Assembly (NCBI GenBank): GCA_963822965.1
Contig: CAWGJT010000009.1
Span: 16,020 to 80,019 of the forward strand
Direction of reading: 5' to 3'
DNA length: 64,000 bases
Source of the DNA: an uncultured delta proteobacterium
GTDB taxonomy: Bacteria; Myxococcota_A; UBA9160; UBA4427
Shown: positions 25,806 through 64,000 of the stretch, one piece after another
Layout: each line of letters begins with the position of its first letter
How positions within the stretch are numbered: the first letter of the stretch is position 1
Program-made: the position numbers and the translations under genes
The notes under the pieces: generated by a model
What the model was told of the DNA's origin: nothing
Databases searched by the model: none
The model's input: the letters and a program-made list of their open reading frames with translations, nothing else

Positions 25806-25815
25806 GCGCAACGCC

Positions 25816-31540: not shown

Positions 31541-31577
31541 CCGCCGGGGGCGCTCGCAGCCGTGGCGACCGGCGCGA

Positions 31578-33081: not shown

Positions 33082-34764
33082 TCACGGCTTGTGTTGCGCG
33101 TCGACCTGCAGTCGCGCGCGCACGAGATGCATTGCGATCCGTTCCTGGTTCGGGGCCAGCTCCGCCGCTCGCTCGAGACGGGGGATCGCCTGCTCGGGGC
33201 TACCGCTCTCGAGCCAGGCACGACCGGCGCGGAAGAGCGTCGAAACGTCTTCCGGCTCGATCTCCAGCGCCGAATCATAGGCGTTCGCGGCTTCGCGCCA
33301 CTCCCGGGCCTGCTCGTGCAGGAGGCCCAACGACTGGTAGCCGCGCGCGGTGGGCGCCAGAGCGAGACTCCGCTCGAACTCGGCGCGAGCTCCGTCGGGG
33401 TCGCCCTCGCGCGCGAGCCGGCGGCCGAGCTCGGTGTGCCGGCTGGGCCCGTCCCGGCCGAGCCAGGCGAGCCGGGCCAGCGCCTGACGCGCGGCCTCCA
33501 CGTCCCCCCGGGACATCGCTGCCCCGAATCCGACGTCGCCCACCCAGAAGGTGACGGCTCCGTACGCCAGGCAGAGCGCCCCCACGCCCTGCGCGGTCCG
33601 CCGCAGCCACGGTGCCCTCCGCACCGCGATGGGCACCGCGAGGTCGCTCGGCGACGGCTGCGATCGCAGCAGCACCCGTGCGACCCGCCCGTCCCGCAGC
33701 TTCCAGACCGCGCCGTCGAGGACGAAGTGATGCAGGTTGACCATCGCTGCCACCATCAGGGCGAGACCGGACTCGTGGGGTAGCCGACCGAGCAGCCCCG
33801 GCGCGAAGACGATGGCGGGAAGCGTCCACACCGCGTAGCCCGCGAGGGTCGCCTTGCCGAGGAAGGCCAGGCGACGGCGCCACGGCGACGGCTGGGCGCG
33901 CACGGCCGCCTCGGATTCGGTCGTGTAGTAGGTCGTGATCCACAGATACTGGACGGCGTGATAGCCCGCGATCCACAGGAAGCCGTAGGCGGTGTAGATG
34001 CTCCGGAAGGCGCTGGCCTCCCCCGCGAGCTGCCAGTGCCGGACGGGCACGGGCACGGTGAACCAGAGCGCCTGGGTTGCCATCAGCGCGAGCGAGGGAA
34101 GGATCGCGACGAGCCCCGCCGACCGCGTCAGCAGGTAGATTGCCGCGATGCTGGCGACCGCCCAGGCGGTGCCGAGGACCACGATGGCAACGCTGCCGAA
34201 GGCGTGCGGAATGCCCAGGGACAGGAGCTTGAAGACCGTGCCCCCGTACGAGACCGGCGCATAGCTGCCTTCGGGCTGCGCGCTGTGGATGGCGACGAAG
34301 GTGAGTAGGAAGGACGCCACGAAGGACGCGTGCACGAAACGCTTCGCGGTCGGCGTCACGGTCACGCCGCGACGTCCGGCCAGCATGAGCGCGATGCCGT
34401 AGTTCTGTCCCGTGTAGTGCCAGGGACTCCACGTGAGATAGACGGTGAGGAGGAGCGAGCCGAGCAGCTGGCCGTACAGGCTCGCGACGAAGCCGGTGGC
34501 GATGAGCAGCGTGGCCCACACCGAGAAGAACCGATACCGGCGCCGGTCGGCCGGATCCTCGTAGACGCGCACGAGCGTGGCGCCGTAGTGCGGCAGCGCG
34601 AAGAGCAGGATCAGCAGGGCGCCGGGAACCCAGGTGGCCAGGACGTTGCGTCCCAGCCCCGCCTGCAGGAGCATGACGGCCATCGAGCCGATCCCGCACC
34701 CGAGGAGCAGGTCCACTCCGGATCCGTACAGCCAGCCGCGCCTGTGCCGTCCCGCGTCGCTCAT
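33082..34764 (-). CDS. Polytopic membrane protein with His boxes and C-terminal TPRs
   Basis: About 9-10 TM segments with PHYGAT, WHYTGQNYG, YHAVQY, HHFVLDGAVW; TPR-like helices in the last ~130 aa. Confidence 0.75.
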   Translation of the reverse strand: MSDAGRHRRGWLYGSGVDLLLGCGIGSMAVMLLQAGLGRNVLATWVPGALLILLFALPHYGATLVRVYEDPADRRRYRFFSVWATLLIATGFVASLYGQLLGSLLLTVYLTWSPWHYTGQNYGIALMLAGRRGVTVTPTAKRFVHASFVASFLLTFVAIHSAQPEGSYAPVSYGGTVFKLLSLGIPHAFGSVAIVVLGTAWAVASIAAIYLLTRSAGLVAILPSLALMATQALWFTVPVPVRHWQLAGEASAFRSIYTAYGFLWIAGYHAVQYLWITTYYTTESEAAVRAQPSPWRRRLAFLGKATLAGYAVWTLPAIVFAPGLLGRLPHESGLALMVAAMVNLHHFVLDGAVWKLRDGRVARVLLRSQPSPSDLAVPIAVRRAPWLRRTAQGVGALCLAYGAVTFWVGDVGFGAAMSRGDVEAARQALARLAWLGRDGPSRHTELGRRLAREGDPDGARAEFERSLALAPTARGYQSLGLLHEQAREWREAANAYDSALEIEPEDVSTLFRAGRAWLESGSPEQAIPRLERAAELAPNQERIAMHLVRARLQVDAQHKP

Positions 34765-34856
34765 GGCCGTAGAGCCGCGAACCTCATCCAGCGATTCGAT
34801 AACCAGGCCGGCACTTTAGTTCAGTCCCAACCACTCCGCGAACACGTTCCCAAAGA

Positions 34857-35147
34857 CCCCCATTCGGCCGCAACCCAATGAGGGGAGTACAGCGCCCGCG
34901 AGTCGCCTCGGCCCCCACTCGGCCGCAACCAAGCCCCACAACGAACGAGGGGAGTACAGCGCCCGCGAGTCGTCTGGCTCTCCATTGGGCGGCAACCAGG
35001 CCCCACAACAAATGAGGGGAGTACGACGCCCGCGAGCCGCCTCGCCCCCCATTGGGCGGCAACCAGGCCCCGCACCCAAGGAGGGGAGTACGACGCCAGC
35101 GAGTCGTCTGGCTCTCCATTGGGCCGCAACCAGGCCTCATCCCCAAA
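34857..35147. repeat. Tandem array with 67-bp period (~4.3 copies)
   Basis: GAGGGGAGTAC at 34880, 34947, 35014 and 35081 (exact 67-bp spacing); partial leading copy from 34857. Confidence 0.95.
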
Positions 35148-35181
35148 AAAAGAAACGGCCACCTCGTGAGAGGTGGCCGTT
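35145..35181 (-). terminator. Rho-independent terminator of the PEP-CTERM gene
   Basis: 12-bp stem AACGGCCACCTC/GAGGTGGCCGTT with 4-nt loop, followed on the minus strand by TCTTTTTTT, ~25 nt after the stop. Confidence 0.9.
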
Positions 35182-35206
35182 CTTCTGTCAGTTGCCGATC
35201 GGACGC

Positions 35207-36163
35207 TTACTTGCGCATCCGGCGACGGCCGATCACGGCGAGGCCGACGGCCCCCGAGACCAGCAGGAGCACGGTGCCCGGCTCGGGCACGAACTCGAAG
35301 TGGATCGTCGCCGAGCCCGGGATGCGTCCCGCGATGGCCGCGGTGTCGATCCGCATCGGGGACACCACCGTCACGCTGCCTGCCTTGCTACCCGAGAGCA
35401 GGTTCTGCGTACCCGAAACGGTCACCGTGTGGTTCTCGACCGCGTTGCCGCCGTTGACGGACACGAATCCACCGTTGGTCGACGGCGTCATCACGGTCTC
35501 GTTCGGAGTCGGCTGCAGGGTGAAGGCGACGCCCTGCACGTTGCCGCGCGCCGGGATCGTGATGAAGTTCGACGTCACCGCCGTGATCACCACCGGCGCC
35601 GTGATGAACGGGCCGTTGGTCACGGTGATGTTGTTGCCCAGCAGCGAGACCATCGTGGTCTCACCCATGGCGCCGCCGACGTGGCTCAGCGGAACCGGAA
35701 GCACGATGGCGCCGCCCAGGGCATTGATCACCGCCACGCCGTTGAGGCGCAGGTTGCCACCGAAGGCCGGACCCACCGAGCCGCCGCCACCGATCTGGTT
35801 GGAGGCGATCACGACGCCGTCCTGGAGGACACCGCCGTTGTTGTGGACCGTCACCTTCAGGTTCGAGATCAGCGGAACGCCGGTGAACAGCGCCGTGCCC
35901 GGACCGAAGTTGACCGTCGACCACACCGTCGCACCCGCGAGGATGTTGTGACCCACGGTCGGGTTGCCCTGGCTACCCGACGCCAGGGAGACCAGGCTCT
36001 CCGTTCCCGGAAGAGCGCTGACCGCGACGGTGGGCAGACCGCTGATGGTCAGACCGAGCGTCGAGTTCGGCTGATCCATCTGGCCCGCCTGCGCTGCCCC
36101 TCCGATTAAGAGGCAGCTCATCGCCACGCACATCACGAGAATCGCTCGCTTCAGGTTCTGCAT
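35207..36163 (-). CDS. PEP-CTERM sorting-domain surface protein (Gly/Thr/Val/Asn-rich, possibly S-layer-like)
   Basis: Signal peptide AQA|G; C-terminal VPEPGTVLLLVSGAVGLAVIGRRRMRK; strong AAGGAG RBS; own terminator. Confidence 0.92.
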   Translation of the reverse strand: MQNLKRAILVMCVAMSCLLIGGAAQAGQMDQPNSTLGLTISGLPTVAVSALPGTESLVSLASGSQGNPTVGHNILAGATVWSTVNFGPGTALFTGVPLISNLKVTVHNNGGVLQDGVVIASNQIGGGGSVGPAFGGNLRLNGVAVINALGGAIVLPVPLSHVGGAMGETTMVSLLGNNITVTNGPFITAPVVITAVTSNFITIPARGNVQGVAFTLQPTPNETVMTPSTNGGFVSVNGGNAVENHTVTVSGTQNLLSGSKAGSVTVVSPMRIDTAAIAGRIPGSATIHFEFVPEPGTVLLLVSGAVGLAVIGRRRMRK

Positions 36164-36755: not shown

Positions 36756-39173
36756 ATGCACCGCTCCCCCCTGCAGCTTCCCCGCCCCGCGACACGAACC
36801 GCGGGACTGCCCCTGGCGTTGACCCTGATCGCCGCCCTGGTGCTCGTCACCGCGTGCCAGTACGACCGCGAGTCGCGGCTCGCCGAGATCCGAACGCTCC
36901 AGGCGGCCGGAAAGTTCGACGAGTCCATCGCTCCGCTGCGCGTCCTGCTCACCGCCGAAGCCGACCATCCCGAGGCCAACTACCGGCTGGGCGTGGCGCT
37001 GGTGCAGACCGGCCGGCCGAGTCTGGCGATCTGGCCGCTGCAGAAGGCGGCGCAGTCCGAGGAATTCAAGATCCAGGCGGGTCTCTTGTTGGCGACGACC
37101 CTGCTCGCCACCGAATCCTACGAAGAGGCCATCCGCGCCACCGATACGGTGCTCGCGGTCGAGCCGGACCGGGTGTCCGCCCTCTACACGCGCGCGCGCG
37201 CCAACATCGCCTCGGGCAAGCCGGCCGAAGCGCTCGTCGACGCCGAACACGTGCTCGAGCTGCAGCCCGACGACTTCATGGGCACCACCCTCAAGGTGGC
37301 GGCGCTGATCGACCTCGAGCGATTCGACGAGGCCGAGGCCACGCACATCAAGCTCAAGGAAGCGAGCGAGAAGGCGGGAGACGAAGACGCCGCAGCGCGC
37401 GCATGCACGGTGCTCGCCCGCTTCTACGCCAGCCGGGAAGACCTCGACAAGGCCAACACCACCCTGCGCGAGTGCATGGAGAAGTATCCGTCCAACAGCT
37501 TCGTGCAGCAGTACGCCTCGGACTTCTTCATCGAGACCGACCAGCAGGACGAAGCGATCGCGGTCTGGCGCAAGGCGGTCGAGCTGGCCCCCGAGGAGAT
37601 CCTGCTGCGCAGCAAGCTCGCGAGCCTGCTCCACGACGCCGGCCGCACCGACGAGGCCGAGGCCGTCTACAAGGAGACGGTCGAGCTCTTCGACAACGCC
37701 CAGGCCTGGCAGCTGCTGGGCGGCTTCTACCGCAAGCTCGGACGCATCACCGAGTCCCGCGAGGCGATCGAGAAGGCCCTCGAGCGCGCGCCCAAGGAGC
37801 CGCCGGCCCTTCGCTTCGCGCTGGCCGACGTCCTGATCGCCGAGGGCAACTACGACCGCGCCGAGGCGATCGCCGAGAGCATGCAGGAGCCGAGCTACCG
37901 GGCCCTGGTGCGCGGCAGCGTGAAGCTCGCGAAGGGCGACCCGGAAGGCGCCCTGAAGCTGCTGGAGTCGGGCATCCGGCTGTGGCCGAACAACGCCGGG
38001 GCGCGCTACGTGGCCGGACAGGCGGCTCTCCAGCTCGGCGATCTCGACCGGGCGCTCGCCGAATACCGCGAAGCGACTCGCGTGGACGAGGGCGCCACCG
38101 ACGCCGCGCTCGCCATGGCGCGGATCTACTACTCGCTCCACAAGTATCCCGCCGCCGAGCAGTTCGCCGAACGGCAGATCAAGACGCGACCGTTCGAGAA
38201 CGGAGACGCGCACGTGATCGCGATTCGCGCCGCCGCCGAGCAGGGCCTGTGGGACAAGGCCGAGAATCTGCTCCAGAACCTCAACGCGCATCCCGGCATG
38301 CGGAACCTCGTGATCGTCGAGCTCGCCGGCGTGATGCGCAAGCGTGAAGGCTACGAGGCCGCCGTCCAGGCCGTCGAGAAGAGCGGTCTCGACCTCACCG
38401 ACGAGGCCAACGCGATGGCGCTCACGTCGCTGTCCCTCGACCTGATCGCGCTCGGACGCCAGGAGGAGGCGCTCGGCCGGGTCGACGCGGCGCTCGCCAA
38501 GGCCCCCGCCAACCCCAAGCTGCTGGACATCCGCGCGCGCCTGCTGGCACGCATGGCCCGGGACGACGAGGCGAAGACCGCCGTCGCCAAGGCGCTCGAG
38601 GCCGATCCGAACTTCGCACCGGCCCTCGAGGTGAAGGCCATGTACGCCGACCAGGCCGGCAAGCTCGAGGAGTCTCTCGCGCTGTACGACCGCGCCGCGG
38701 CGGCGGACCCCGAGAACGCGGACTACGCCTACCGGGCGGCGCGCATCTCGCTGCGGCTGGGCCGCACCGAGGACGCGATCGCGCGGCTTCGCAAGGTCGT
38801 GAGCCTCTCTCCCGGCCACGTCGCCGCCACCAACGATCTCGCCTGGTGGCTCGCGGAGTCGGGCCGCGAGCTCGATTTGGCCCTCGACCTGGCCAAGCGG
38901 GCCATCCAGCTCGATCGACGCGCCGAGACCCTCGACACCCTCGGCTGGGTGCAGTTCAAGCGGGGCGACGTGGACGCCGCGATCACCTCCTTCGAGGCGG
39001 CTCTCCAGGCGCAGCCGGACTCGCCTTCGGTGCGCTACCGCCTGGCGCTGGCGCAGCACCAGAAGGGCGATGCCAAGGCCGCTCGAGAGAACCTGTCGCG
39101 CGCGCTGGAGATCGACTCCTTCCCCGAGATGCAGGCCGCACGAGCCGAGCTCGCTCGCCTCGAGAACGACTGA
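36756..39173 (+). CDS. TPR-repeat lipoprotein (PrsT-like)
   Basis: GGAGG RBS, lipobox LVTAC, TPRs throughout, C-terminal NDLAW...DTLGWV...YRLA...FPE. Confidence 0.8.
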   Translation: MHRSPLQLPRPATRTAGLPLALTLIAALVLVTACQYDRESRLAEIRTLQAAGKFDESIAPLRVLLTAEADHPEANYRLGVALVQTGRPSLAIWPLQKAAQSEEFKIQAGLLLATTLLATESYEEAIRATDTVLAVEPDRVSALYTRARANIASGKPAEALVDAEHVLELQPDDFMGTTLKVAALIDLERFDEAEATHIKLKEASEKAGDEDAAARACTVLARFYASREDLDKANTTLRECMEKYPSNSFVQQYASDFFIETDQQDEAIAVWRKAVELAPEEILLRSKLASLLHDAGRTDEAEAVYKETVELFDNAQAWQLLGGFYRKLGRITESREAIEKALERAPKEPPALRFALADVLIAEGNYDRAEAIAESMQEPSYRALVRGSVKLAKGDPEGALKLLESGIRLWPNNAGARYVAGQAALQLGDLDRALAEYREATRVDEGATDAALAMARIYYSLHKYPAAEQFAERQIKTRPFENGDAHVIAIRAAAEQGLWDKAENLLQNLNAHPGMRNLVIVELAGVMRKREGYEAAVQAVEKSGLDLTDEANAMALTSLSLDLIALGRQEEALGRVDAALAKAPANPKLLDIRARLLARMARDDEAKTAVAKALEADPNFAPALEVKAMYADQAGKLEESLALYDRAAAADPENADYAYRAARISLRLGRTEDAIARLRKVVSLSPGHVAATNDLAWWLAESGRELDLALDLAKRAIQLDRRAETLDTLGWVQFKRGDVDAAITSFEAALQAQPDSPSVRYRLALAQHQKGDAKAARENLSRALEIDSFPEMQAARAELARLEND

Positions 39174-39183
39174 GCGCAGGCAC

Positions 39184-41667
39184 ATGGGGATCGGATCGAA
39201 GAGACCGTTGGCGCGGTCGCGCGCCGACGGTTTCCTGACCGCCGGCGCGCTCCTGCTGACGGTCGTCCTCGCGTGCTCGTCTCCCGAGGAACGCGCGCGC
39301 TCGCACCTCGAGCAGGCACGGCACTATCTGGCCGAGAACCGCCGCAAAGAAGCCACCCTCGAGCTGCAGAGCGCGCTGCAATTCGATCCCTCGAGCGTCG
39401 AGGCCAACAACCGGCTGGCGGAGATCGAGCTGGCGAACGGCAATCTCAGCGCCGCCCTCAGCTACATGCAGGAGGCGTTCCGCCTCGATCCGACCGACAG
39501 CACGGCCTGCCTCCACCTCGCCAGCCTGCTCCGGACCGACCAGCCGGATCGCGCCCGGGAGCTCATCGAGGCGGTGATCGAGCGCGAGCCGGAGAACCCC
39601 GACGGCTACATCGGACGTTCGGACCTGGCGCTCGCCGAGGGACGCACGCGGGACGCCATCGCAGCCGCCCGCCAGGCGGCGGAGGTCGCGCCCGACGACC
39701 CGCACGTGGACTGGCAGCAGGGCTACATCCTGGAGGCGATGATCCGAGAGGGCCAGCTCACCGGTGAGACGGCGGAGGACTCGATCTACAAGGGCGCCCT
39801 GGCCGCCTTCGAGCGGTACATCGAGAAGGGCGGCGAGAGCCCGTGGACCGCGCAGCTCGAGGAGGCACGGGTACTCGGCGCCTGGGAGGGGCGCGGGCGC
39901 GAAGCCGCGCGGCTCTTCCGGATCTCCGTGCAGAGCGCCCTGGAAGCCGACGCCGCCACGGACGCCCTGCGCGGCGCGACGACGGCCGCGGGCTACGCCC
40001 GCGCCGTCGGAGACGACGAGCTGCTCGAATGGGCCCTGGGCGTGCTCGTCGAGCAGGAGCCGCGCGACCTGCGCAACTGGCAGACCCTCGCCGAGCTACG
40101 ACGGCGCCAGCGCAAGAACCCGGAAGAAGTGTGGCAGCGCATGATCGAGACCCTGCCCCAGGAGCCACGCGCCCACATCGAGTACGCGCGCTTCCTGATC
40201 TCGCGCTGGAAGCTCGACGAGGCCCTCGCCTATCTCGAGAAGAAGGCCTCCGAGGGAGTGGACCCGCCCATGCTGCTGGGTGCGATTGCCAGCACGCAGA
40301 TGGCGGCCGGGCGCCTGGACGACGCGCGGAAGACCGTGGCCCGCCTGGAGCGGGAGCACCCGGGCAGCCCGCGCACCATCCTCGAGCGTGCCCAGCTCGA
40401 CATCCGGACCGGCCAGGTCCGGCCGGCGCTCCGCTCGCTGCGCAAGCTGGCCGAGAAGGGCTCCGACGCCGACGTCTTCCGCATGCTGGCCCGCGCGGAG
40501 GAGATCGTCGGCAACCGGGACCGGGCCCTCGCGGCCGTCAACCACGCGATCGAGGCGAGCCCGTTCTTCTCCTACGAGGACCAGCGCATGCGGTCTCGCA
40601 TGCTGGCGGAGAGCGGCAAGTACGCCGCCGCCATCACGAACCTGCTGGCCATCCGCGACCGCATGCCGCTCTCCGCGGAGGACAACCTCCTGCTGGCCCG
40701 CTGCCGCTACGAGAACGGCCAGAACCTGCACGGGCGCAAGCTGCTCGAAGGGATCCTGGCGACGCGCCGTCCCCCGGCCGACGCGGTGCTCGAGTACGCG
40801 CGCCGGGAGTCGGACGATCCCCAGCATGTGGATCTCGCGCGCCGGGAGCTGGAAGCGCTGATACGCCGCAAGCCGGACCAGTGGGAGGCGCTGGGCGAGC
40901 TCGTCCGCATCGATCGTGCCTCCGGCCACGACGAGCAAGCGCTGGACCGGCTGGACCGGATCATCGAGCGGCAGGGTGATCGGGTCCCCCCGCAGATCCT
41001 CCTGCTGCGCGCACAGGTGAGCGCGGGCGCCGGTCGACAGGACGGGGCGCTCGCGGACGCGGAGGCGGCCTTCCGCGCACAGCCCCGGCTGCGGGGTGCC
41101 CTGGAGATGGTGGTCGCCCTGCAGCTGCGCAAGGGCGACGTGGACGGCGCCATCGCCGCGGCCGAGGAGGCGAAGCGGAAGGGCGCTCTCGACCCCGATC
41201 GACGCGCGCTGCTGGGCCGCCTGTACTCGATGAAGGGAAGGGACGACGAGGCGCTCACGATCCTCGAGCAGGCGCTCGAGGGAGGGGCCTCCGACCCGAT
41301 CCTCAAGAGCGACGTGGCCTTCCTGCTGGCGAAGAAGGGCCGCGACCTGGAGCGCGCCCTGACCATCGCCCAGGAGGCCGAGAGCGAGCTCACGGACGAT
41401 CCCCGCGCCGCGGACACCCTTGGCTACGTGTACCTGCGTTCCGGGCAGAGTAATCGCGCGCTGTCGCACTTCGAGCAGGCCGTGGCGCGCTCCGACGCCC
41501 CACATCCCGTCTACTACTACCATCTGGGGCTCGCCCTGCAGTCGCTCGACCGCAGCGAGGAGGCCGCTCGGGCCTTCGAGAAGGCGCTCTCCATCAGTCC
41601 GGACTTCCCGGAGGCGAACGAGGCGAGACGCGCGCTCGAGGGAACTCGCAACGCCCGTGCCTCCTGA
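39184..41667 (+). CDS. TPR-repeat lipoprotein (second PrsT-like paralogue)
   Basis: Lipobox VLACS, TPRs, C-terminal DTLGYVY...YHLGLAL...FPEA. Confidence 0.8.
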   Translation: MGIGSKRPLARSRADGFLTAGALLLTVVLACSSPEERARSHLEQARHYLAENRRKEATLELQSALQFDPSSVEANNRLAEIELANGNLSAALSYMQEAFRLDPTDSTACLHLASLLRTDQPDRARELIEAVIEREPENPDGYIGRSDLALAEGRTRDAIAAARQAAEVAPDDPHVDWQQGYILEAMIREGQLTGETAEDSIYKGALAAFERYIEKGGESPWTAQLEEARVLGAWEGRGREAARLFRISVQSALEADAATDALRGATTAAGYARAVGDDELLEWALGVLVEQEPRDLRNWQTLAELRRRQRKNPEEVWQRMIETLPQEPRAHIEYARFLISRWKLDEALAYLEKKASEGVDPPMLLGAIASTQMAAGRLDDARKTVARLEREHPGSPRTILERAQLDIRTGQVRPALRSLRKLAEKGSDADVFRMLARAEEIVGNRDRALAAVNHAIEASPFFSYEDQRMRSRMLAESGKYAAAITNLLAIRDRMPLSAEDNLLLARCRYENGQNLHGRKLLEGILATRRPPADAVLEYARRESDDPQHVDLARRELEALIRRKPDQWEALGELVRIDRASGHDEQALDRLDRIIERQGDRVPPQILLLRAQVSAGAGRQDGALADAEAAFRAQPRLRGALEMVVALQLRKGDVDGAIAAAEEAKRKGALDPDRRALLGRLYSMKGRDDEALTILEQALEGGASDPILKSDVAFLLAKKGRDLERALTIAQEAESELTDDPRAADTLGYVYLRSGQSNRALSHFEQAVARSDAPHPVYYYHLGLALQSLDRSEEAARAFEKALSISPDFPEANEARRALEGTRNARAS

Positions 41668-54347: not shown

Positions 54348-54355
54348 GGGTCTCC

Positions 54356-55792: not shown

Positions 55793-56030
55793 CGAACGCG
55801 GCAGCATACCGCGTCCCGCACGCGGCCCGCGCGCAGCGCCCGCCGGCGTCTCTCGCGCGCCCTGGGGCGTTCGGCGATACTGGACCCGTGACCGAAACCG
55901 CGGAAGCTGCCCGCACGTGCGCGCTCTGCACCCACGACGAGGCGGACGACGGTTCCTGGCCGAGGCGCGAGGTGCTCGTGGTCGGCGAGAAGCGCGGGAC
56001 GCGCGCACCCGCTGCGGGCTCGGGACGCCG

Positions 56031-56996
56031 ATGAGCACGCCGCGCGTCTCGGTCGCCATGGCGACCTGCGAAGGCTCCCGCTTCGTCGAGACCCAGCTCG
56101 AGAGCATCGCCGGACAGACGCGACCCCCGGACGAGCTCGTCGTGTGCGACGACGCCTCCCAGGACGACACCTTCGCACGTCTGGAATCCTTCGCGGCGGC
56201 CACGGACCTGGAGACGCGCGTCCTCCGGAATCCGGTGCGCCTCGGCATCACCGCGAACTTCGAGCGCGTCGTCTCCGCCTGCACCGGCGACGTCATCTTC
56301 CTGGCCGACCAGGACGACGTCTGGCTTCCCGAGAAGATCGCCACCCTGACGGACGTGCTCGTCCGACGCCCGGAGCTGGGAGCCGTATTCAGCGACGGCG
56401 AGGTGGTGGATGCGGAGCTCTCGCCCCAGGGCTACACGCTGTGGGAATCCCTGGGCTTCGACGAACGCGAGCGCGAGCAGGTGCGCCGGGGCGACGCGGT
56501 GGGTGTGTTCCTGCGGCACGTCGTCGCCGCCGGAACGACCCTGGCGTTCCGGGCGGGCTTCCGCGAGCGCGCCCTGCCCTTCCCGCCCCTCCGAAGCTGT
56601 CACGACGCGTTCATCGCCTTCGTCGTGGCCGCCCTCGCGCCCATCGAGATCGTGGAGACCCCCCTCATCCGATACCGGGTGCACGACCGCAACCAGATCG
56701 GGATCCGACGACTCGGCCTGCGGGAGCAGCTCGCGAAGGCCCGGGAGCAGCTCGCCAGCGACGCCTTCGGCTATGCGGTCGAGTTCTTCGAAGCGGCCCG
56801 GGCGCGGCTGACGCACGCTCCCCCCGACGTCCTGCACCGCATCGACGAGAAGATCCTGCACGCCCGCCGGCGCCAGGCCATGTCCCCGCACTGGCTCGCG
56901 CGGCTCCGGGACATCCACGAGGAGGCGCGTTCGGGCCGCTACCGGCGCTACTCGTACGGCTGGAAGAGCATCGCCCAGGACCTCTGGCTCCGGTGA
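56031..56996 (+). CDS. GT2 glycosyltransferase (rhamnosyltransferase-like)
   Basis: SVAMAT, CDDASQD, FLADQDDVW, HD, YRVH..NQIG. Confidence 0.88.
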   Translation: MSTPRVSVAMATCEGSRFVETQLESIAGQTRPPDELVVCDDASQDDTFARLESFAAATDLETRVLRNPVRLGITANFERVVSACTGDVIFLADQDDVWLPEKIATLTDVLVRRPELGAVFSDGEVVDAELSPQGYTLWESLGFDEREREQVRRGDAVGVFLRHVVAAGTTLAFRAGFRERALPFPPLRSCHDAFIAFVVAALAPIEIVETPLIRYRVHDRNQIGIRRLGLREQLAKAREQLASDAFGYAVEFFEAARARLTHAPPDVLHRIDEKILHARRRQAMSPHWLARLRDIHEEARSGRYRRYSYGWKSIAQDLWLR

Positions 56997-59173
56997 GGGA
57001 CGGCTCCGCGAGCGATCGACTGCTGCGGGCGACGGATCTCGTCTGCGACGGGACGGTGGGGGCGTTCGCGATCTGGACCGTGTGCTGCCACGCCGCCGTC
57101 TTCACCGGACAGGGGCTCGACACGCTGATTGCGATCGCGTCGCTCGCCCTGGGCGCCGCGGCTCTCGGGGGCGTCCTGCTCGCCCGGGCGATCGGCCGCC
57201 GCGGGAGGCCCGGGACGCCGGCGTCCTCCTCCGATCCGGCTGCGCCGCCCGTCCCCTCCTCCACGCCGGCGCCAGGCCTCCGACTCGCGGTGGCGGCGGT
57301 GGCCGCCGGCTGCGCGGCGGCCGCCGCGGCGGGAGCGCCGCTCGTGGCGGTGTGGAGCGTGGCCCTCACCCTGCTGCTGGGCCTCGGCCTGCGCGAGCTG
57401 GCAACCGCGAGCGCGCCGCAGACCGCGGCCCACGCGACCCCGGGCGCTCTGGCGTGGCTGGTCGCGCTCGCGCTCCTGTCCGTCGTCGCGACCCTGTGCG
57501 CGCACCGTCCGGACGCCGACGACGGCTTCTACCTCGACCTCGCGGTGGCGGCGGCCGACGCGCCGCGAGCGGCGCTGCTCGCGGGTGACACCCTCCACCG
57601 GGTGGCCGGCGTTCCCCTGGCGCTGCCCGTCTACCGCGTGCACTCCCTCGAGCTGCTGCAGGCGGCGATCGCGCGCATCGGCGGCCTCCCGGTGCTCGAC
57701 GTCGCGCACCTGGCGCTTCCGGCGTTCGCCGCGCTGCTCCTGCCCTTCGCGTACGCGCGGCTCCTCCGCAGCCTGACGCCGCGAGCGTGGCCCTGGGCGC
57801 TGGGCGTCGCAACGGGCTTCCTCCTCTTCTCGGCGACGGCGAGCCACGGCTGGGCGAACTTCGGGATCGTTCGGCTGCACCAGGGCAAGGCGATCCTGCT
57901 GTCCCTGGCGCTCCCCCTCACCGTCGCCTACGCGATCGAGTTCGCGCGGGCGGGCGGAGGGGTGCGCTTCGTGAAGCTCGCGGCCGTGCAGATCGGCGCC
58001 GTCGGCCTGAGCGCCTCCGGGCTCTGGCTCGCTCCCGCGGTGGCCGCCCCCGCGCTCCTCGCCGGGCTGCCCGACCGCCCGAACGGCGCGGCACTTCGGC
58101 GCCTGGGCCTGGGCCTCCTCGCTTCCGCGTACGTGCTCGGACTGGCGCTGGCGCTGCGGGGCGCGACCGCCGCGGCCTTCCGCGACGCGGCGGTTCCGAG
58201 CCCGGAGCTCGAGAGCGGCAGCGTGCAGCTGGCCACCCAGGCCCTGCGGGCCGTGCTCGGTCCGGGGCTGCCGGGATTCCTCGCGCTCTTCGTCGCGCTC
58301 GGGGCCTGGAGCTTTGCGAGCAACGCCCTCGCCCGCCGGCTGTGCGCGTTCTCGAGCCTCGCCACCCTGATCCTGTGGAATCCCCTTGCGGCGCAGTCGC
58401 TCGCCGCCTGGCTCACGAGCGCGCCCACCTACTGGCGGGTGCTGTGGCTGCTCCCGCTGCCGGCGCTCTTCGCGCTGGTCCTGACGGCGCCGCTCGAAGC
58501 GACGGGCGGTCCCCTCTCCCGCCCCGTGCGCGCCGCCGCGGTCGTCGCCGCGGCGGCGCTCGTGTTCGGCGCTGGCTTCTGGCAGGCGCCGCGCGCGCTC
58601 ACGCTTTCGGCCGCCAACCACGTGCGTCTGGGGGCGCCGGGATGGAAGATCCCCCGGGCCGAGCTGGCCGCCGTCCGCAGCATCACGACCGGCGCGAGCG
58701 AGAACGACGTCGTCCTCGCCCCGCGGCGCGTGGCACCCTGGATTCCCGCCTTCCACCGCCATCCGACGCCCCTGGTCGTGCGCATCGAGTATCTGCCGGT
58801 GCTCTACGAGAAGCTCGGCCCCGACGAGCTCGCCCGCCGCGTCCAGCTCCTGCGGCTCGTCTCGGGCGAGCGCCGGGTGCCCCTGGCGGACGATCTGCTG
58901 CGCAACGCCATCTCTCAGGACGGGATCTCCATCGTCTGCCTGGCAGCGGCGGCGCGGCGGTGGCCCGACGTGACCGCCGTGCTGGTGGACTCCGGGTTCC
59001 AGAAGATCCACGCGGACGCCGATTACGAGGTCTGGAGACGAGCGCGAGACCGGGAGACGGTCCGGGAGGCGACCGCGCCTTCGAGCCGCCCCCCCGACCC
59101 GGGGACCCGGGCCGGGAGCGCCGAGCAGGGCCCGACACGGGGTCGCCAGGAAGGGGGAGGGAGAGGCCTGTGA
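56993..59173 (+). CDS. Large polytopic membrane protein (DUF6077-like, probable GT-C)
   Basis: HRPDADDGFY, RLHQGKAIL, YWRVLWLLP; many TMs; GTGA overlap with upstream gene. Confidence 0.6.
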   Translation: MRDGSASDRLLRATDLVCDGTVGAFAIWTVCCHAAVFTGQGLDTLIAIASLALGAAALGGVLLARAIGRRGRPGTPASSSDPAAPPVPSSTPAPGLRLAVAAVAAGCAAAAAAGAPLVAVWSVALTLLLGLGLRELATASAPQTAAHATPGALAWLVALALLSVVATLCAHRPDADDGFYLDLAVAAADAPRAALLAGDTLHRVAGVPLALPVYRVHSLELLQAAIARIGGLPVLDVAHLALPAFAALLLPFAYARLLRSLTPRAWPWALGVATGFLLFSATASHGWANFGIVRLHQGKAILLSLALPLTVAYAIEFARAGGGVRFVKLAAVQIGAVGLSASGLWLAPAVAAPALLAGLPDRPNGAALRRLGLGLLASAYVLGLALALRGATAAAFRDAAVPSPELESGSVQLATQALRAVLGPGLPGFLALFVALGAWSFASNALARRLCAFSSLATLILWNPLAAQSLAAWLTSAPTYWRVLWLLPLPALFALVLTAPLEATGGPLSRPVRAAAVVAAAALVFGAGFWQAPRALTLSAANHVRLGAPGWKIPRAELAAVRSITTGASENDVVLAPRRVAPWIPAFHRHPTPLVVRIEYLPVLYEKLGPDELARRVQLLRLVSGERRVPLADDLLRNAISQDGISIVCLAAAARRWPDVTAVLVDSGFQKIHADADYEVWRRARDRETVREATAPSSRPPDPGTRAGSAEQGPTRGRQEGGGRGL

Positions 59174-59195
59174 TAGCCTGCCGAGCGCATCCAAG

Positions 59196-60161
59196 ATGAT
59201 CGCCGTCGTCATCCCCTGCTATCGCGTCAAGGATCAGATCCTCGACGTCCTCTCCGGAATCGGTCCGGAGTGCTCCGCGATCTACGTCGTCGACGACGGC
59301 TGCCCGGAGGGCACCGCGGACCACGTCGAGGCGGAGTGCCGCGACCCGCGCGTGCGCGTGCTGCGCCACGGCACCAACCAGGGCGTCGGCGCGGCCACCC
59401 TCACCGGCTATCGCGCCGCCTTCGAGGCCGGGGCGGACGTGATCGTGAAGCTCGACGGGGACGGACAGATGGATCCCACCTGGATCCCCCGTCTCGTGCG
59501 GCCCATCCAGGACGGCGAGGCGGACTACGTCAAGGGCAACCGCTTCTTCGAGCTGGACGGTCTCGATTCGATGCCGCGCATCCGCGTCCTGGGCAACTCG
59601 ATCCTCTCCTTCGCGAGCAAGCTCTCGAGCGGCTACTGGAACGTCTTCGATCCCACCAACGGATTCACCGCGATCCACGCCGCCGTCGCGCGCCGCCTTC
59701 CCTTCGCGAAGCTGGCGACCCGCTACTTCTTCGAGTCCGACCTGCTCTTCCGGCTCGGCATCCTGCGCGCGGTGGTGTGCGAGGTCCCCATGCCCGCCGT
59801 CTATCGCGACGAGCCGAGCAGCCTGGTGATCCGGCACGTGCTGGGCGAGTTCGCCTGGAAGCATCTCGCAAACACCGCCAAGCGCATCTTCTACTGCTAC
59901 TACCTGCGCAACTTCAACATCGCCTCCATCGAGATCGTGGCCGGGGTGGCCTTCCTCACGTTCGGCGTCTGGTTCGGCCTCTCGGAGTGGATCGCGGGGA
60001 CCCGTGCGAACGTTCCCGCGACGAGCGGCACGGTGATGGTGGCCGCACTGCCGGTGATCGTGGGCGTGCAGCTGATCCTCGCCTTCCTGAGCTACGACCT
60101 CCAGAACGTTCCGCGCGAGACCTTGCACCGGCGTCTGGAGCCCGCGCCGTCGAAGTCGTGA
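59196..60161 (+). CDS. GT2 glycosyltransferase with C-terminal TM helices
   Basis: VIPCY, VDDGCP, NQGVGAA, KLDGDGQMDP, KGNRF, DPTNGF, FESD. Confidence 0.9.
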   Translation: MIAVVIPCYRVKDQILDVLSGIGPECSAIYVVDDGCPEGTADHVEAECRDPRVRVLRHGTNQGVGAATLTGYRAAFEAGADVIVKLDGDGQMDPTWIPRLVRPIQDGEADYVKGNRFFELDGLDSMPRIRVLGNSILSFASKLSSGYWNVFDPTNGFTAIHAAVARRLPFAKLATRYFFESDLLFRLGILRAVVCEVPMPAVYRDEPSSLVIRHVLGEFAWKHLANTAKRIFYCYYLRNFNIASIEIVAGVAFLTFGVWFGLSEWIAGTRANVPATSGTVMVAALPVIVGVQLILAFLSYDLQNVPRETLHRRLEPAPSKS

Positions 60162-60171
60162 GGAGCGTGCG

Positions 60172-61182
60172 GTGAAGGTCCGACGCCTGGTCTCGATCGC
60201 CCTGCGCCTCGGGGTTGCGGCCGCGAGCCTCGCACTGGCCTTCCGGATGGCGCTCGCGGGAAGCGAGCAGGGCATCTTCGCGGCGCTGGTCGGCGCCTTT
60301 CGGGTGCCTCCCGCGCAGGCCGTGCGGTGGTTCGCCGGGGCGTTCTCGATCCTGGGGGTGAGCCTGGGAATCGGCGCCGTGCGCTTCCGCGTGCTGCTGC
60401 GCGGCGCGGGCCTCGACATCGGGCTCGCGATCCTGTTTCGCGCCTACCTGGTGGCGACCTTCTTCAACCTCGTGCTTCCCGGCGCGATCCTGGGAGACGT
60501 CTACCGCTTCTTCGACGCCAGGCGAAGCACGGGAGAGGGTGCGCGCGTGCTCGGCGTCGTCGTGATGGAGCGCCTGCTGAGCCTGGCCGCGCTCGGGAGC
60601 ATCGCGCTGGCGGTGGCGCCGACGATCTCCGGGATCCACGAGGACCGCCGGCTCCTGGGGTGGCTCGTCGCCGCGGGGGGCGGCTTCGTGGCGGCCGCGC
60701 TCGCCGCGCTGACGCCCCTGGTGAACCGCTGGCTGGTGCGGGTTGCCCGCCGCCTCGGCGGTGTCTCGCCGCGGGTCGCCCTGGCCGGCGAACGCTCCCT
60801 CGACGCCGTCGCCGGTCTCGCCGCTCGCCGTGCGGTCGTGGCCCGGGCCTTCGCCCTGAGCCTCGTCAACCAGGGTCTTCCCGTGCTGGCGGTGGCGGTG
60901 CTCGCCGTCCCCCTCGACGCGCTGGTGCCGTGGTACTGGTTCGCGGTGATCGTTCCCTTCGTGACGCTGGTATCGCTGCTGCCCGTCAGCATCGGCGGGA
61001 CCGGGGTGCGCGAGCTCCTCTACGTCTCGCTCTTCGGCGCCGTGGGGATGCGCGCGGAGGCGGCTCTCGCCCTCTCGCTCTCGGTGATGGCGGCCGCCGT
61101 CCTGTGGGGCGCCGTCGGACTCGTCGTATTCGCGACCGGGCGCCGCGACCCGGCGCTCCAGACGAGCGTCGCCGAGGTCTGA
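60172..61182 (+). CDS. Lysylphosphatidylglycerol-synthase TM domain (flippase-like) protein
   Basis: RF..LL, FFNLVLPGAILGDVYR, ERL, LPVSIGGTGVRE. Confidence 0.85.
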   Translation: MKVRRLVSIALRLGVAAASLALAFRMALAGSEQGIFAALVGAFRVPPAQAVRWFAGAFSILGVSLGIGAVRFRVLLRGAGLDIGLAILFRAYLVATFFNLVLPGAILGDVYRFFDARRSTGEGARVLGVVVMERLLSLAALGSIALAVAPTISGIHEDRRLLGWLVAAGGGFVAAALAALTPLVNRWLVRVARRLGGVSPRVALAGERSLDAVAGLAARRAVVARAFALSLVNQGLPVLAVAVLAVPLDALVPWYWFAVIVPFVTLVSLLPVSIGGTGVRELLYVSLFGAVGMRAEAALALSLSVMAAAVLWGAVGLVVFATGRRDPALQTSVAEV

Positions 61183-61185
61183 CCC

Positions 61186-62091
61186 GTGCAGGAGATCGGC
61201 ATCGCCATCCCCTTCTACCGCAACCTCGACTACCTGCGGAGCGCCGTCGAGAGCGTCGTGGCCCAGTCGTCCCCTGCGTGGCGGCTCACGGTCGTCGACG
61301 ATTCCGGGCGCGGAGAGCGGGAGGAGAGCGTGCGCGAGCTCGTCGACTCGTTCCGGGACGGTCGCATCGCGTACCAGCGCAACCCCGAGACCCTGGGAAT
61401 GGTCTCCAACTGGAATCGCTGCATCGATCGCGTGCAGAGCCCGCTCGTCAGCCTGCTGCACGGCGACGACCGGCTGCTCCCGAGCTACGTAGCGGAGATG
61501 GGGCGCTGCGCCGAGGCCCATCCCGACGCGGTGGCCCTCTACTGCGGCGCGGAGATCATCGACGCGTCCGGCCGCGGCGTCTTCTCTCTACCCGATCGCA
61601 TCAAGGGCTGGCTCGAGCCGAGCGGCGGCGACGGCAGCAGCGTCCTGCGCGGACAGCCGGGAGCCACGGCGCTGATGCGTGGCAACTTCATCATGTGCCC
61701 CACCCTGTGCTTCCGGCGCGCCGTGCTCGGCCAACGCCGCTTCGACCACGGCTGGGAGCAGGTGCAGGACCTCGAGCTGACGATCCGCCTGCTGATGGAA
61801 GGCGAGACCATCGCCGGGTCGCCGGCGGTCGCGTACGCGTATCGGCGCCACGAGGAGAGCGCCACGTCGGTGCATTCCGAGAGTCGACTTCGCTTCGACG
61901 AGGAGATCCGCCTCTTCGACCTGATCGCCGACCGCGCCGAGGCGTTGGGCTGGTCCGAGACGGCGCGCGTAGCGCGGGGCAAGCGCATCGTGAAGCTCCA
62001 CCTGCTGTACCGCGCGCTGCGGGCGCTCGCGCGGGGTCGCCTGGGCGGCGCCGCGAGTACCCTGCGCTACCTGGTGTCCCATTGGTCGTAG
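61186..62091 (+). CDS. GT2 glycosyltransferase
   Basis: IPFY, VVDDS, GMVSNWN, LHGDD, YRRH. Confidence 0.85.
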   Translation: MQEIGIAIPFYRNLDYLRSAVESVVAQSSPAWRLTVVDDSGRGEREESVRELVDSFRDGRIAYQRNPETLGMVSNWNRCIDRVQSPLVSLLHGDDRLLPSYVAEMGRCAEAHPDAVALYCGAEIIDASGRGVFSLPDRIKGWLEPSGGDGSSVLRGQPGATALMRGNFIMCPTLCFRRAVLGQRRFDHGWEQVQDLELTIRLLMEGETIAGSPAVAYAYRRHEESATSVHSESRLRFDEEIRLFDLIADRAEALGWSETARVARGKRIVKLHLLYRALRALARGRLGGAASTLRYLVSHWS

Positions 62092-62873
62092 ACGGCGGCG
62101 AGCGCCCCGGCGCTCTCCTCGCAACCGGGCTGCGAGCCTTGCGCGCGGCCGGGCGCCAGCTCGAGTGGCGCGCCCTGCGGCTCGGGCGCGGACGCTGTCC
62201 GCTCTGCGACGGGCGCTTCTTCGTCCGCTTCTCGCGGGATCTCCTGGGAACCCGGTGCCTCGCCTGTGGCGCGTCTCCCATCTCCACCGCCATCGGCTCG
62301 GTGGTGGGTCGCCGGGTCCCCGACCTCGCCCAGGCCCGGGTCCTGGAGCTCTCGTCCCGCGGTCCCTTCCACGCCTTCCTCCGGCGCACCCTGGCGGGTG
62401 GTCGCGGCGCGCTCACGGACTGCGAGTACTTCGACGATCTCGAGCCGGGAGGCTGGCGCGACGGCGTCCAGTGCCAGGACGTGCAGCGCCTCACCTACGC
62501 CGACGCCTCGTTCGACCTGTGCACGAGCACCGAGGTCTTCGAGCACGTCCCGGACGACGCCCGGGGCTTCGGCGAGCTCTTCCGGGTGCTGGCGCCCGGG
62601 GGCTTGCTGGTCTTCACGGTGCCCCTCTCGTCCCGGGAGGAGACCGTCGAGCGCGCTCGTCGGGTGGACGGCGCGCTCGTCCACCTGCAGGAGCCCAGCT
62701 ACCACGACGACCTCATCCGCGGCGCCGCACGGGTGCTCGTCTACCGCGACTACGGCCGCGACGTGACCACCCGGGTCGCCCGAGCGGGATTCGCGGACGC
62801 ACGCATCGAGAGCGTCCCGGACCCGGCGGGCTTCGGATGCGTCGCCCAGGTGGTGGTGGCGCGCAAGCCCTGA
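62082..62873 (+). CDS. Class I SAM-dependent methyltransferase with N-terminal CxxC/CxxC
   Basis: CPLC...CLAC, DVQRLTYADASFD, EVFEHVPD, RVLAPGG, FTVP; start uncertain. Confidence 0.8.
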   Translation: MVVDGGERPGALLATGLRALRAAGRQLEWRALRLGRGRCPLCDGRFFVRFSRDLLGTRCLACGASPISTAIGSVVGRRVPDLAQARVLELSSRGPFHAFLRRTLAGGRGALTDCEYFDDLEPGGWRDGVQCQDVQRLTYADASFDLCTSTEVFEHVPDDARGFGELFRVLAPGGLLVFTVPLSSREETVERARRVDGALVHLQEPSYHDDLIRGAARVLVYRDYGRDVTTRVARAGFADARIESVPDPAGFGCVAQVVVARKP

Positions 62874-62880
62874 GCGCTCA

Positions 62881-63039
62881 GAGCCTGTGAAGGAATCCTC
62901 GACCGAGTCAGGCGCTGCGCCGGTGGGTCGGATGCAAGGCGCGACGACGAGGCGTAGCGCGCCTACGGCGAGGAGGAGCAACGCCGCAGACGGCCCGCCG
63001 CCGCGAGCCTGGCGACCGAGAGGATTCCTTCACAGGCTC
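62881..63039. mobile_element. 159-bp non-autonomous MITE-like element
   Basis: Perfect 20-bp inverted termini GAGCCTGTGAAGGAATCCTC (62881-62900) and GAGGATTCCTTCACAGGCTC (63020-63039); TCA on both flanks (62878-62880, 63040-63042). Confidence 0.85.
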
Positions 63040-64000
63040 TCAGTCCCGCGGCACCCACAGCGTGCCCGACCGGATGTGCGCGCCGGAGATGGGAACGAAG
63101 AGGTTCACGTCCTCGAAGAGGAAGCCCTGCAGCCGGTAGTGCTGCTCGAGGAAGCCGTCTCCCAGGTAGCGCCGCACGAAGGCGGTGTTGCTGTCGACGA
63201 TCGCCGCGAAGCGCCGGTCGGCGACCGCCCGGCGGTAGGACTCGAGGAGCGGCGCGGCACCGGCCAGACCGCTCCTGGCCCAGTCCGAGACGGGCATCTG
63301 GTGGGCGTAGACGCGCTTGCCCGCGCGGCCGGCCAGGTAGCCTTCGACGGGCATCAGCACCTCGCCGTCCAGGGCCGCGATCCGCGCCTGCAGGGCGCGG
63401 CCGGCGGCCCGGTCGGCGGGACCCGGCACCCAGCCCCGGGGCACCCGGAAGAGCACCGCCAGCTGCAGCGCCAGCGCGAGGGCGACGACGAGGCCCAGCC
63501 GACGGGCGGCGGCCGGGGACGCGAAGCGGGCCTGCAGGCGGGCGATTCCGACGCCGGTCATCACGGCGAGCCAGGCGTAGGTGGGGATCAGGTTGTTCGC
63601 TGCCCCGCCCACCTTGAGACGCGGAATCAGCGAGGCGAGCAGCACGCCGACGAGCGCCACGACGTAGAAGCCGTCCCATGCGCGAACGGATTCCGGCCTT
63701 CCATCGGGCTCCGACCGGAGCAGCAGCAGCCAGGCGACCGTCGCCACACACAGAACCGGCACCGCCAGCAGCAGGTCGTGCCCGAAGAAGACGCCGAAGC
63801 GGCCGGCCTGGATGCTGTGCCTCTGCTGCACGCTCACGATGTGGACGAGGAAGTGCTCGTCGACGATCCCGTTCAGCAGCAGGGTGGCGGTGCCCACGCC
63901 CGCCGCCAGCGGGAGGCCATACCACACGAAGCGCTGCCACTCGGCGAAGCGGCGCAGAGATCGGCCGTGGGCGCGCCAGTCCGCCCACGCACACCAGAGG
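63040..64000 (-). CDS. Membrane protein, probable GT-C glycosyltransferase (start lies outside window)
   Basis: Several TM helices, KVGGAANNLIP, C-terminal soluble domain; frame appears open towards the window edge. Confidence 0.55.
   Translation of the reverse strand, partial: LWCAWADWRAHGRSLRRFAEWQRFVWYGLPLAAGVGTATLLLNGIVDEHFLVHIVSVQQRHSIQAGRFGVFFGHDLLLAVPVLCVATVAWLLLLRSEPDGRPESVRAWDGFYVVALVGVLLASLIPRLKVGGAANNLIPTYAWLAVMTGVGIARLQARFASPAAARRLGLVVALALALQLAVLFRVPRGWVPGPADRAAGRALQARIAALDGEVLMPVEGYLAGRAGKRVYAHQMPVSDWARSGLAGAAPLLESYRRAVADRRFAAIVDSNTAFVRRYLGDGFLEQHYRLQGFLFEDVNLFVPISGAHIRSGTLWVPRD

Follow-up and report, generated by a model that had tools for sequence, protein, structure and literature searches.

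A conserved candidate envelope-glycosylation locus encoding an AglB-like enzyme and a linked PEP-CTERM protein family in uncultured marine Myxococcota

The 64,000-nucleotide stretch of DNA analyzed here (the window; GenBank assembly GCA_963822965.1, contig CAWGJT010000009.1, positions 16,020 to 80,019) comes from an uncultured marine myxobacterium. Its right half carries a glycan locus in which a PEP-CTERM gene lies among genes for an AglB-like enzyme, other candidate GT-C glycosyltransferases, and long tetratricopeptide repeat (TPR) lipoproteins. A first-pass annotation of the sequence had proposed an archaeal-style assembly line for glycosylating a surface protein. We interpret the region as an envelope-glycosylation locus operating on polyprenol-monophosphate sugars, with the linked PEP-CTERM protein family as the likeliest acceptor, and advance this tentatively, at slightly less than even confidence. 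In the cytoplasm, a Gfo-type dehydrogenase and a DegT aminotransferase would convert a nucleotide sugar into an amino sugar (probably 3-amino), and small DPM1/AglJ-like GT2 enzymes would load sugars onto polyprenol phosphate. Once flipped, the sugars would be moved to the acceptor by periplasm-facing GT-C enzymes, namely a PMT_2 protein, a TMTC-like protein, and the AglB-like enzyme, whose acceptor-reading motif is altered. Two TPR lipoproteins could serve as a scaffold, and two sulfatase-fold proteins of a threonine type as phospho-transferases or hydrolases. Finally, an exosortase from another part of the genome would process the PEP-CTERM family, whose genes diverge from those of the TPR lipoproteins.

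Because a G+C content of 72% yields many false open reading frames, coding frames were called from third-position GC content (GC3) with a frame-aware Viterbi pass, and gene families were assigned by Pfam and NCBIfam profile scans (Pfam at E ≤ 0.01 for window genes between ~31 and 64 kb). Every gene type listed in the first-pass annotation was recovered; the four GT2s, DUF6077, the flippase-like protein, the Gfo/DegT pair, the methyltransferase, and the sulfatase-fold lipoprotein were found by Pfam. At the center of the locus is a tightly packed operon of five minus-strand genes, with 0–10 bp between adjoining genes except for 108 bp between GT2a and Gfo. The first gene encodes Sulf2, a sulfatase-fold lipoprotein with lipobox WLAC (54356–55807; PF00884, 169.7 bits). 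It is followed by GT2a, a small soluble GT2 and candidate polyprenol-phosphate sugar synthase (53625–54347); a Gfo/Idh/MocA oxidoreductase (52488–53516; PF01408, 102.6 bits); a DegT/DnrJ/EryC1 aminotransferase (51378–52491; PF01041); and an AglB/STT3-like GT-C enzyme (49133–51371).

A profile of 11 orthologues of the AglB-like enzyme matched A. fulgidus AglB (3WAJ) with an E-value of 6.6e-24, aligning residues 6–584 with 17–617. PF02516 and PF18079, the AglB peripheral domain, are present in homologues, which pipelines annotate as Stt3-like or hypothetical proteins. The sole NCBIfam match is to TIGR04154 (archaeosortase-A-associated STT3), at 206.6 bits against a cutoff of 450, and PF02516 scores 23.6 bits on the window copy, whose 3′ end is damaged, below its cutoff of 24.5. 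Three segments are invariant in all 11 orthologues: D51-x-x-Y-H-x-R-R (D51/H55/R57/R58), D163-H164-H165, and G-E345-Q346-x-P. D51 and D163 align with the corresponding segments of AglB, and the acidic motifs that we take to be catalytic, in the first loops and at the glutamate of the TIxE/SVSE-type motif, are retained. The AglB-like label given at first pass thus stands as to homology and acidic motifs, but the scores lie below curated cutoffs and the WWDxG motif is gone. The segment aligned with WWDYG reads H(A/P)N(L/I/F)GH in 11/11 orthologues (EANLGH in one), with N527, G529, and H530 invariant, and WWD is also missing in 4/4 AglB-like paralogues of this genome. In N-glycosylation, WWD is what reads the sequon, by binding its +2 Ser/Thr. 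Because WWDxG is replaced by H(A/P)N(L/I/F)GH, the AglB-like enzyme is, judging by its motifs, not a classical N-X-S/T oligosaccharyltransferase. No description of a bacterial AglB lacking WWDxG, or of this locus, was found in the literature searched.

The remaining operon genes suggest how donor sugars might be made. The best model for Gfo is an archaeal UDP-GlcNAc 3-dehydrogenase (NF040723, 157.2 bits, below the cutoff of 450), and DegT is a sugar aminotransferase of no clear subfamily. GT2a, which is 74–89% identical across genera, has its best NCBIfam matches to a haloarchaeal Dol-P hexose transferase, AglJ, and PpgS, all below cutoff; the membrane-tailed GT2c also resembles these three at scores below cutoff. 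The polyprenol-phosphate sugar logic suggested at first pass fits these likenesses. It also fits the scan of the 31–64 kb genes (E ≤ 0.01), in which no family match was obtained for Wzx, Wzy, Wzz, Wza, Wzc, an ABC exporter, or a priming phosphoglycosyltransferase, as had been noted for Wzy, Wzc, Wza, and ABC exporters; these genes do not make up a Wzx/Wzy-, ABC-, or synthase-dependent polysaccharide pathway. Archaeal models are the best NCBIfam matches for the AglB-like protein, GT2a, and Gfo, which bears out the archaeal flavor of the earlier proposal. Because of these three archaeal best models and the restriction of the AglB-like family to one order among 151 sampled Myxococcota, the data suggest possible transfer of the operon from archaea.

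Both sulfatase-fold proteins have threonine at the formylglycine position (T-K-A-S-M in Sulf1, T-V-P-S-H in Sulf2) and give weak EptA/MCR-type matches. Threonine at the nucleophile position suits phospho-transferases or hydrolases better than sulfatases, and both proteins are probably phospho-transferases or hydrolases and not sulfatases.

The candidate cargo and acceptor is a 318-residue PEP-CTERM protein (35207–36163, minus strand), recognized at first pass and scoring above the cutoffs of both PF07589 (21.2 bits; cutoff, 20.7) and TIGR02595 (19.9 bits; cutoff, 16). It has an N-terminal signal peptide and a VPEPGT...GRRRMRK tail, and its sequence ends in VPEPGTVLLLVSGAVGLAVIGRRRMRK. It therefore combines the features of an exosortase substrate: PEP motif, transmembrane helix, basic tail, signal peptide, and an exosortase in the same genome. 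Every orthologue has a signal peptide and a VPEPG tail, and full-length identities range from 31% to 70%. Of the 15 genomes examined at this position, 13 have the orthologue adjoining TPR lipoprotein 1 (G000, which is this genome, and G005, G008, G009, G013, G014, G015, G017, G018, G019, G023, G024, and G028). PEP-CTERM matches also lie at the expected coordinate in G043 and G044; for G045, none was present there among the matches listed. G041 and G042 are apparently the same assemblies as G024 and G015. The gene occurs in tandem copies in G008 (two), G022 (two), and G028 (five), and tandem copies are common for cargo genes. In G028, which belongs to another family of the order (27–48% protein identity), the gene order is AglB-like, sulfatase-like, TMTC-like, TPR2, TPR1, sulfatase-like, five PEP-CTERM, and membrane-TPR. 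The five paralogues of this locus (L096, G028:C25:153900-158900) are ~255–276 amino acids long, with the TPR lipoprotein pair before them and the membrane-TPR gene after them. Within the window's own genome, a second PEP-CTERM copy, 93% identical, lies outside the locus (G000:C8:94213-95157). A paralogue of the membrane-TPR protein (41–44% identity) is encoded ~16 kb from that copy, at C8:76281-77861.

An exosortase had been expected elsewhere in the genome, and seven PF09721 matches above cutoff are present, none of them on this contig. They comprise general exosortases, one XrtT-like protein, and one XrtH; TIGR02602 is above cutoff for three and the XrtH model for one. Five relatives have three to seven exosortase matches each. 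EpsI, PrsK/PrsR, and exosortase genes were not seen in the locus itself. According to the portion of a 2018 article consulted, exosortases had not yet been analyzed experimentally, and substrates of the archaeosortase ArtA are glycosylated and C-terminally processed (PMC6098224).

Divergent from the PEP-CTERM unit is a plus-strand unit of three genes. The first two encode TPR lipoprotein 1 (36756–39173, lipobox VTAC) and TPR lipoprotein 2 (39184–41667, lipobox VLAC), each with a lipobox cysteine. Described at first pass as PrsT-like, they are long TPR lipoproteins, but their scores against the PrsT equivalog model TIGR02917 (242.7 and 179.8 bits) fall below its cutoff of 312.2, and the locus contains no exosortase. 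The third gene encodes the fused MFS/spermidine-synthase-like protein that had been reported (~41657–44746, start uncertain), an accessory component, which has a TPR tail, a PF01564 match of 53.6 bits, and an NF037959 score of 147.2 bits against a cutoff of 40.

Between this unit and the five-gene operon lies a convergent/divergent group that adds two candidate transferases. The TMTC-like membrane protein (44756–~46483, minus strand, start uncertain) has a helical-repeat tail and is a candidate GT-C. Its label comes only from language-model features (0.98–0.99, against the TMTC_DUF1736 and PMT_2 clusters) and passes no family cutoff, as neither TMTC_DUF1736 nor any other Pfam membrane-domain family was matched by any of 16 orthologues. 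PDB sequence searches with the single sequence and with a profile returned nothing meaningful, and an hhalign comparison with the AglB-like profile was uninformative (probability 0.5). S36-D37-D38 is invariant in the family. PMT_2 (46614–48213, plus strand), a GT39/ArnT-like GT-C with an extra C-terminal domain, matches PF13231 at 26.9 bits against a cutoff of 26.1, in line with its earlier description as ArnT-like. A dienelactone hydrolase (48351–~49100, plus strand) lies between the PMT_2 and AglB-like genes; it recurs in 1/27 related loci and is probably an insertion specific to the window's genus.

Conservation across relatives links these units. The AglB-like protein is present in all 24 genomes sampled from the window's family and in 36/41 relatives, often as several paralogues; this genome has five such genes. 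Across the phylum, matches at E ≤ 1e-40 occur in 14 of 151 sampled genomes; the 24 genomes sampled from the window's order account for all 14, and the other 127 have none. Related loci come mostly from uncultured Myxococcota metagenome-assembled genomes (MAGs), with a few labeled Deltaproteobacteria, Spirochaetaceae, or "bacterium." Synteny was scored in 27 loci from MAG records, in flanks of ±10 kb around the AglB-like gene and at ≥40% identity except for TPR2; these flanks are often cut by contig ends. PMT_2 was found in 20–21 of the 27 loci, Gfo in 20, DegT and GT2a in 19 each, Sulf2 and the TMTC-like gene in 18 each, TPR2 in 15, TPR1 in 12, and GT2b in 11. Far fewer contained LPG_synthase_TM (4/27), the MFS/spermidine-synthase fusion (3/27, plus G008 and G014), GT2c (3/27), DUF6077 (2/27), or GT2d (1/27). 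The PEP-CTERM gene, the two TPR lipoprotein genes, the TMTC-like and PMT_2 genes, and the five-gene operon form a core conserved across genera of one order, in keeping with the expectation that the genes would co-occur in relatives. The order of this core is kept in at least 12 genera and in a second family at 27–48% protein identity. In many genera, PMT_2 and the TMTC-like gene are separated by a gene for a second, membrane-anchored GT2, whose neighbors on either side in G008 encode a methyltransferase and an NAD-dependent epimerase. The left and middle parts of the locus are thus the conserved core, and the DUF6077/GT2c/flippase-like/GT2d/methyltransferase block and the MFS fusion are rare outside the window's genus.

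Several observations weigh against the interpretation of a single system acting on the PEP-CTERM family. Roughly half of the 31 kb seldom recurs beyond the window's genus. Because the housekeeping neighbors Ddl and UvrD are syntenic too, simple inheritance accounts in part for synteny within the family. With at least 38 PEP-CTERM matches in the genome, or roughly one every 180 kb, finding one within a 40-kb locus is not rare by itself, and only one of the genome's five AglB-like genes lies within 20 kb of a PEP-CTERM match. Five loci (L044–L047 and L064) hold the AglB-like homologue alone; four of the 27 (L044–L047) show no neighbors at all, and L064 is a fragment with ~4 kb lacking PMT_2. Apart from the number of PEP-CTERM matches, these features also speak for an alternative in which several unrelated glycan pathways are merely juxtaposed, with the PEP-CTERM gene as a passenger and no single system. 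We give that explanation little probability: the core order persists across genera and into a second family, and for the core mere juxtaposition is unlikely.

Other points against the preferred interpretation concern the acceptor. In two genomes of the window's own genus the locus persists without the PEP-CTERM gene: in G001 it is absent, and G002 retains only an 83-residue remnant, with a full copy elsewhere in each genome and no locus genes near it. The complete genome G008 has no exosortase within 300 kb of the locus. No N-X-S/T sequon is conserved in the PEP-CTERM family alignment, which agrees with the missing WWD, and the window protein has four sequons in 318 residues, about the number expected from composition. 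Given the replacement of WWDxG in 11/11 orthologues and 4/4 paralogues, the AglB-like enzyme may not act on asparagine at all. ArnT, a member of the PMT_2 family, acts on lipid A and not on protein. We infer the donor chemistry, the topology, and, above all, the acceptor from the gene families, motifs, operon structure, synteny, and exosortases described above. The surface-protein assembly line first proposed is partly supported. Two outcomes named with it as refuting, absence of co-occurrence in relatives and a genome without an exosortase, do not hold for the core genes and for this genome. Protein glycosylation remains plausible on these sequence features.

The same donor machinery could instead serve a non-protein acceptor (lipid A or lipopolysaccharide core, a glycolipid, or a periplasmic or surface glycan) in the manner of the Arn pathway, with the PEP-CTERM protein merely an associated matrix or surface protein. 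We judge this rival somewhat unlikely but serious. DegT, GT2, and PMT_2 mirror ArnB, ArnC, and ArnT, and weak model matches are obtained for ArnB (118.4 bits) and ArnC (38.2 bits); these lie far below the respective cutoffs of 631 and 529, and genes resembling ArnA or ArnD were not seen in the locus. The loss of WWDxG and the persistence of the G001 locus without its PEP-CTERM gene also favor such an acceptor, as does the threonine nucleophile with its weak EptA/MCR matches, a combination found in lipid A phosphoethanolamine transferases. By contrast, the families closest to the three transferases (STT3/AglB, PMT, and TMTC) act on proteins where characterized. The TPR domains and TPR lipoproteins suggest protein handling, and the PEP-CTERM link is kept even in a different family of the order. 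PEP-CTERM proteins have also been tied to exopolysaccharide loci, according to the part of Haft 2006 consulted, which speaks for the non-protein acceptor.

A further possibility couples glycan chemistry to sorting. According to the portion of the source consulted, type IX secretion cargo is joined to anionic lipopolysaccharide (A-LPS) through a linking sugar of the Wbp pathway (PMC7468200). By analogy, the five-gene operon might equip a lipid or an envelope glycan with a sugar that bears an amine, and an exosortase might use the amine as a nucleophile to anchor the PEP-CTERM protein through its new C-terminus, an idea we regard as improbable. The chemistry expected of Gfo and DegT is of the WbpB/WbpE type, with a UDP-GlcNAc 3-dehydrogenase as the best model for Gfo. 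No N-acetyltransferase turned up in the locus scans, which may leave the amine free; sequon reading is lost in the AglB-like enzyme, and the operon is linked with a PEP-CTERM cargo gene. The proposal is pure analogy, however: the locus has no exosortase within or close to it and showed neither a VimA/FemAB-like nor a deacetylase gene, and the position of the amino group would follow from model matches below cutoff. The sortase family differs from that of the type IX system, and WbpA, WbpD, and Vim genes were not seen in the locus, which has in common with that system WbpB/WbpE-like enzymes beside a C-terminally sorted cargo.

In its fullest form, which we consider a long shot, this scheme would have the sequon-blind AglB-like operon set a free-amine sugar on an envelope carrier, to which an exosortase would ligate the cleaved PEP-CTERM protein. 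The ligation step would involve an unnamed, His-rich membrane-TPR protein whose gene (33082–34764, minus strand) lies immediately downstream of the cargo gene. It consists of a membrane domain of ~400 residues and C-terminal TPRs, which would face the periplasm according to the positive-inside rule. Its gene directly follows the PEP-CTERM gene in G000, G013, G017 (twice), G018, and G028; three paralogues in this genome are not adjacent to PEP-CTERM matches. Pfam matches are limited to the TPRs, and the membrane domain has no Pfam family in 20/20 members and no relative among PDB sequences. AF2 models had pLDDT values of 88 and 83 (83 for the domain model). TPR matches dominated the fold search with the full model, and the membrane domain folded alone gave a best Z of 7.1, to rhodopsins, a generic seven-helix match. 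Among its best 50 fold matches there was no GT-C, Foldseek returned nothing at E ≤ 0.001, and an hhalign comparison with the AglB-like profile was uninformative (probability 0.3). By these searches the protein is not recognizable as a GT-C. The family comprises 1681 representative clusters at E ≤ 0.001 and has invariant polar residues at H59, H116, H160, H269, N343, H345, H346, D350, K355, and R357. An atlas search with the domain gave a best value of 0.87, to unnamed clusters, which is a lead only. A predicted complex with the PEP-CTERM protein scored 0.00, which gives no answer and carries no weight either way.

The minus-strand PEP-CTERM unit is completed by Sulf1, a membrane-anchored sulfatase-fold protein (31453–33063; PF00884, 143.9 bits), the last gene of that operon, which lies just outside the region considered at first pass and is syntenic in relatives, after the PEP-CTERM or the membrane-TPR gene. 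To the right of the five-gene operon, a plus-strand block (56031–62873) encodes GT2b (56031–56996), DUF6077 (56993–59173), GT2c (59196–60161), the flippase-like LPG_synthase_TM protein (60172–61182), GT2d (61186–62091), and the methyltransferase (62088–62873). The 3′ part of a further PMT_2-like membrane protein gene follows on the minus strand (63040–64000, continuing to window-equivalent position 64561); its full gene matches PF13231 at 24.8 bits, below 26.1, and is syntenic in G001 and G002. The glycan cluster extends ~8.5 kb beyond the end of the window. There, at G000:C9:80731-88504, lie more large membrane proteins with weak GT-C-clan matches (Glyco_transf_22, PTPS_related, DUF6541) and another GT2. 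The island seems to end near C9:88500, ahead of a glyoxalase-like gene and UvrD; Ddl and UvrD bound the whole island both here and in G008. To the left of Ddl (24483–27246) are genes for a GT87-family GT-C (33.7 bits) and an MBOAT O-acyltransferase. The GT87 gene is syntenic in G001, G002, G008, G009, and G023, and both genes may be part of the same envelope program. Farther left (15625–17631) is a gene for a 668-residue response-regulator/DUF4388/DnaJ/TPR fusion protein, unrelated to the locus.

Frame switches are abundant across the window, as in the GatB region at 19.9–21.1 kb (19919–21148, two Pfam stretches), and continue beyond its right end (to G000:C9:104000). Four genes of the locus are frame-shifted. 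PMT_2 changes frame near 47890, the dienelactone hydrolase switches three times, and the AglB-like gene changes frame twice within its last ~70 codons. DegT changes frame near 51789, with PF01041 profile positions 4–224 in one frame and 224–358 in another. A public protein (97% identity, 746 amino acids) maps to the window in three successive frames, and comparison of the window with contigs of other public runs shows single-base indels at 48528, 48695, 48779, 48960, 49332, and 49351, which are the frame-change sites. In the complete genome G008 the genes are clean and continuous, and PMT_2 is one continuous gene in relatives. Because of the three-frame protein mapping, the single-base contig differences, and the clean G008 genes, the frame changes point to assembly indels rather than gene decay, and we set aside their reading as pseudogene marks. 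For the DegT change near 51789, no contig piece from public runs spans the site among the pieces listed. The assembly seems to carry many single-base indels, and the gene models given here are approximate.

Four other known systems offer points of comparison. The locus resembles euryarchaeal AglJ/AglB N-glycosylation on dolichol monophosphate, with ArtA and PGF-CTERM S-layer glycoproteins, in that its AglB-like enzyme matches TIGR04154 only and aligns to 3WAJ, GT2a best matches Dol-P hexose transferase and AglJ, and a C-terminally sorted surface protein is encoded alongside. It differs in its bacterial host, its TIGR04154 score of 206.6 against 450, its H(A/P)NxGH in place of WWDxG, and its PEP-CTERM rather than PGF-CTERM protein, accompanied by PMT_2, TMTC-like, and TPR lipoprotein genes. 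The TIGR04154 family reportedly co-occurs with ArtA, as its name implies. XrtA-EpsH exopolysaccharide loci with PrsT likewise pair PEP-CTERM cargo with long TPR lipoproteins and many glycosyltransferases, and exosortases are present in this genome. Here, however, genes for an exosortase, EpsI, PrsK/PrsR, Wza/Wzc, and a priming transferase are absent from the locus, neither TPR lipoprotein reaches the PrsT cutoff, and the chemistry would be that of GT-C enzymes and polyprenol monophosphate. The Arn pathway for lipid A aminoarabinose similarly groups an aminotransferase, an Und-P-sugar GT2, and a periplasmic GT-C; the present locus has a Gfo-type dehydrogenase in place of ArnA, no ArnD or ArnE/F, an AglB-like gene at the operon end, and Arn model scores far below cutoff. 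Campylobacter PglB, which serves N-glycosylation, and the eukaryotic PMT and TMTC enzymes of O-mannosylation are also GT-Cs that use lipid-linked sugars outside the cytoplasmic face, and TMTC enzymes carry TPRs, but the locus lacks Und-PP-oligosaccharide assembly genes and WWDxG, and TMTC_DUF1736 is matched by 0/16 orthologues.

In the literature consulted, including the available part of PMC6098224, neither the modification nor the attachment chemistry has been worked out for any exosortase substrate. The locus described here provides a compact, conserved candidate set for doing so: a cargo family, a bacterial AglB relative with its catalytic center but without its sequon reader, an amino-sugar supply, two more GT-Cs, a membrane protein of an unnamed family, and TPR lipoproteins. 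With a protein as acceptor, the locus would represent a new bacterial route of protein glycosylation with non-classical site recognition, of interest for glyco-engineering. If it is a lipid, the locus would represent a new envelope modification in marine Myxococcota. Were glycan chemistry and sorting coupled, it would name the long-unknown exosortase acceptor and stand as a bacterial parallel to the archaeosortase/AglB pairing as well as to type IX A-LPS anchoring.

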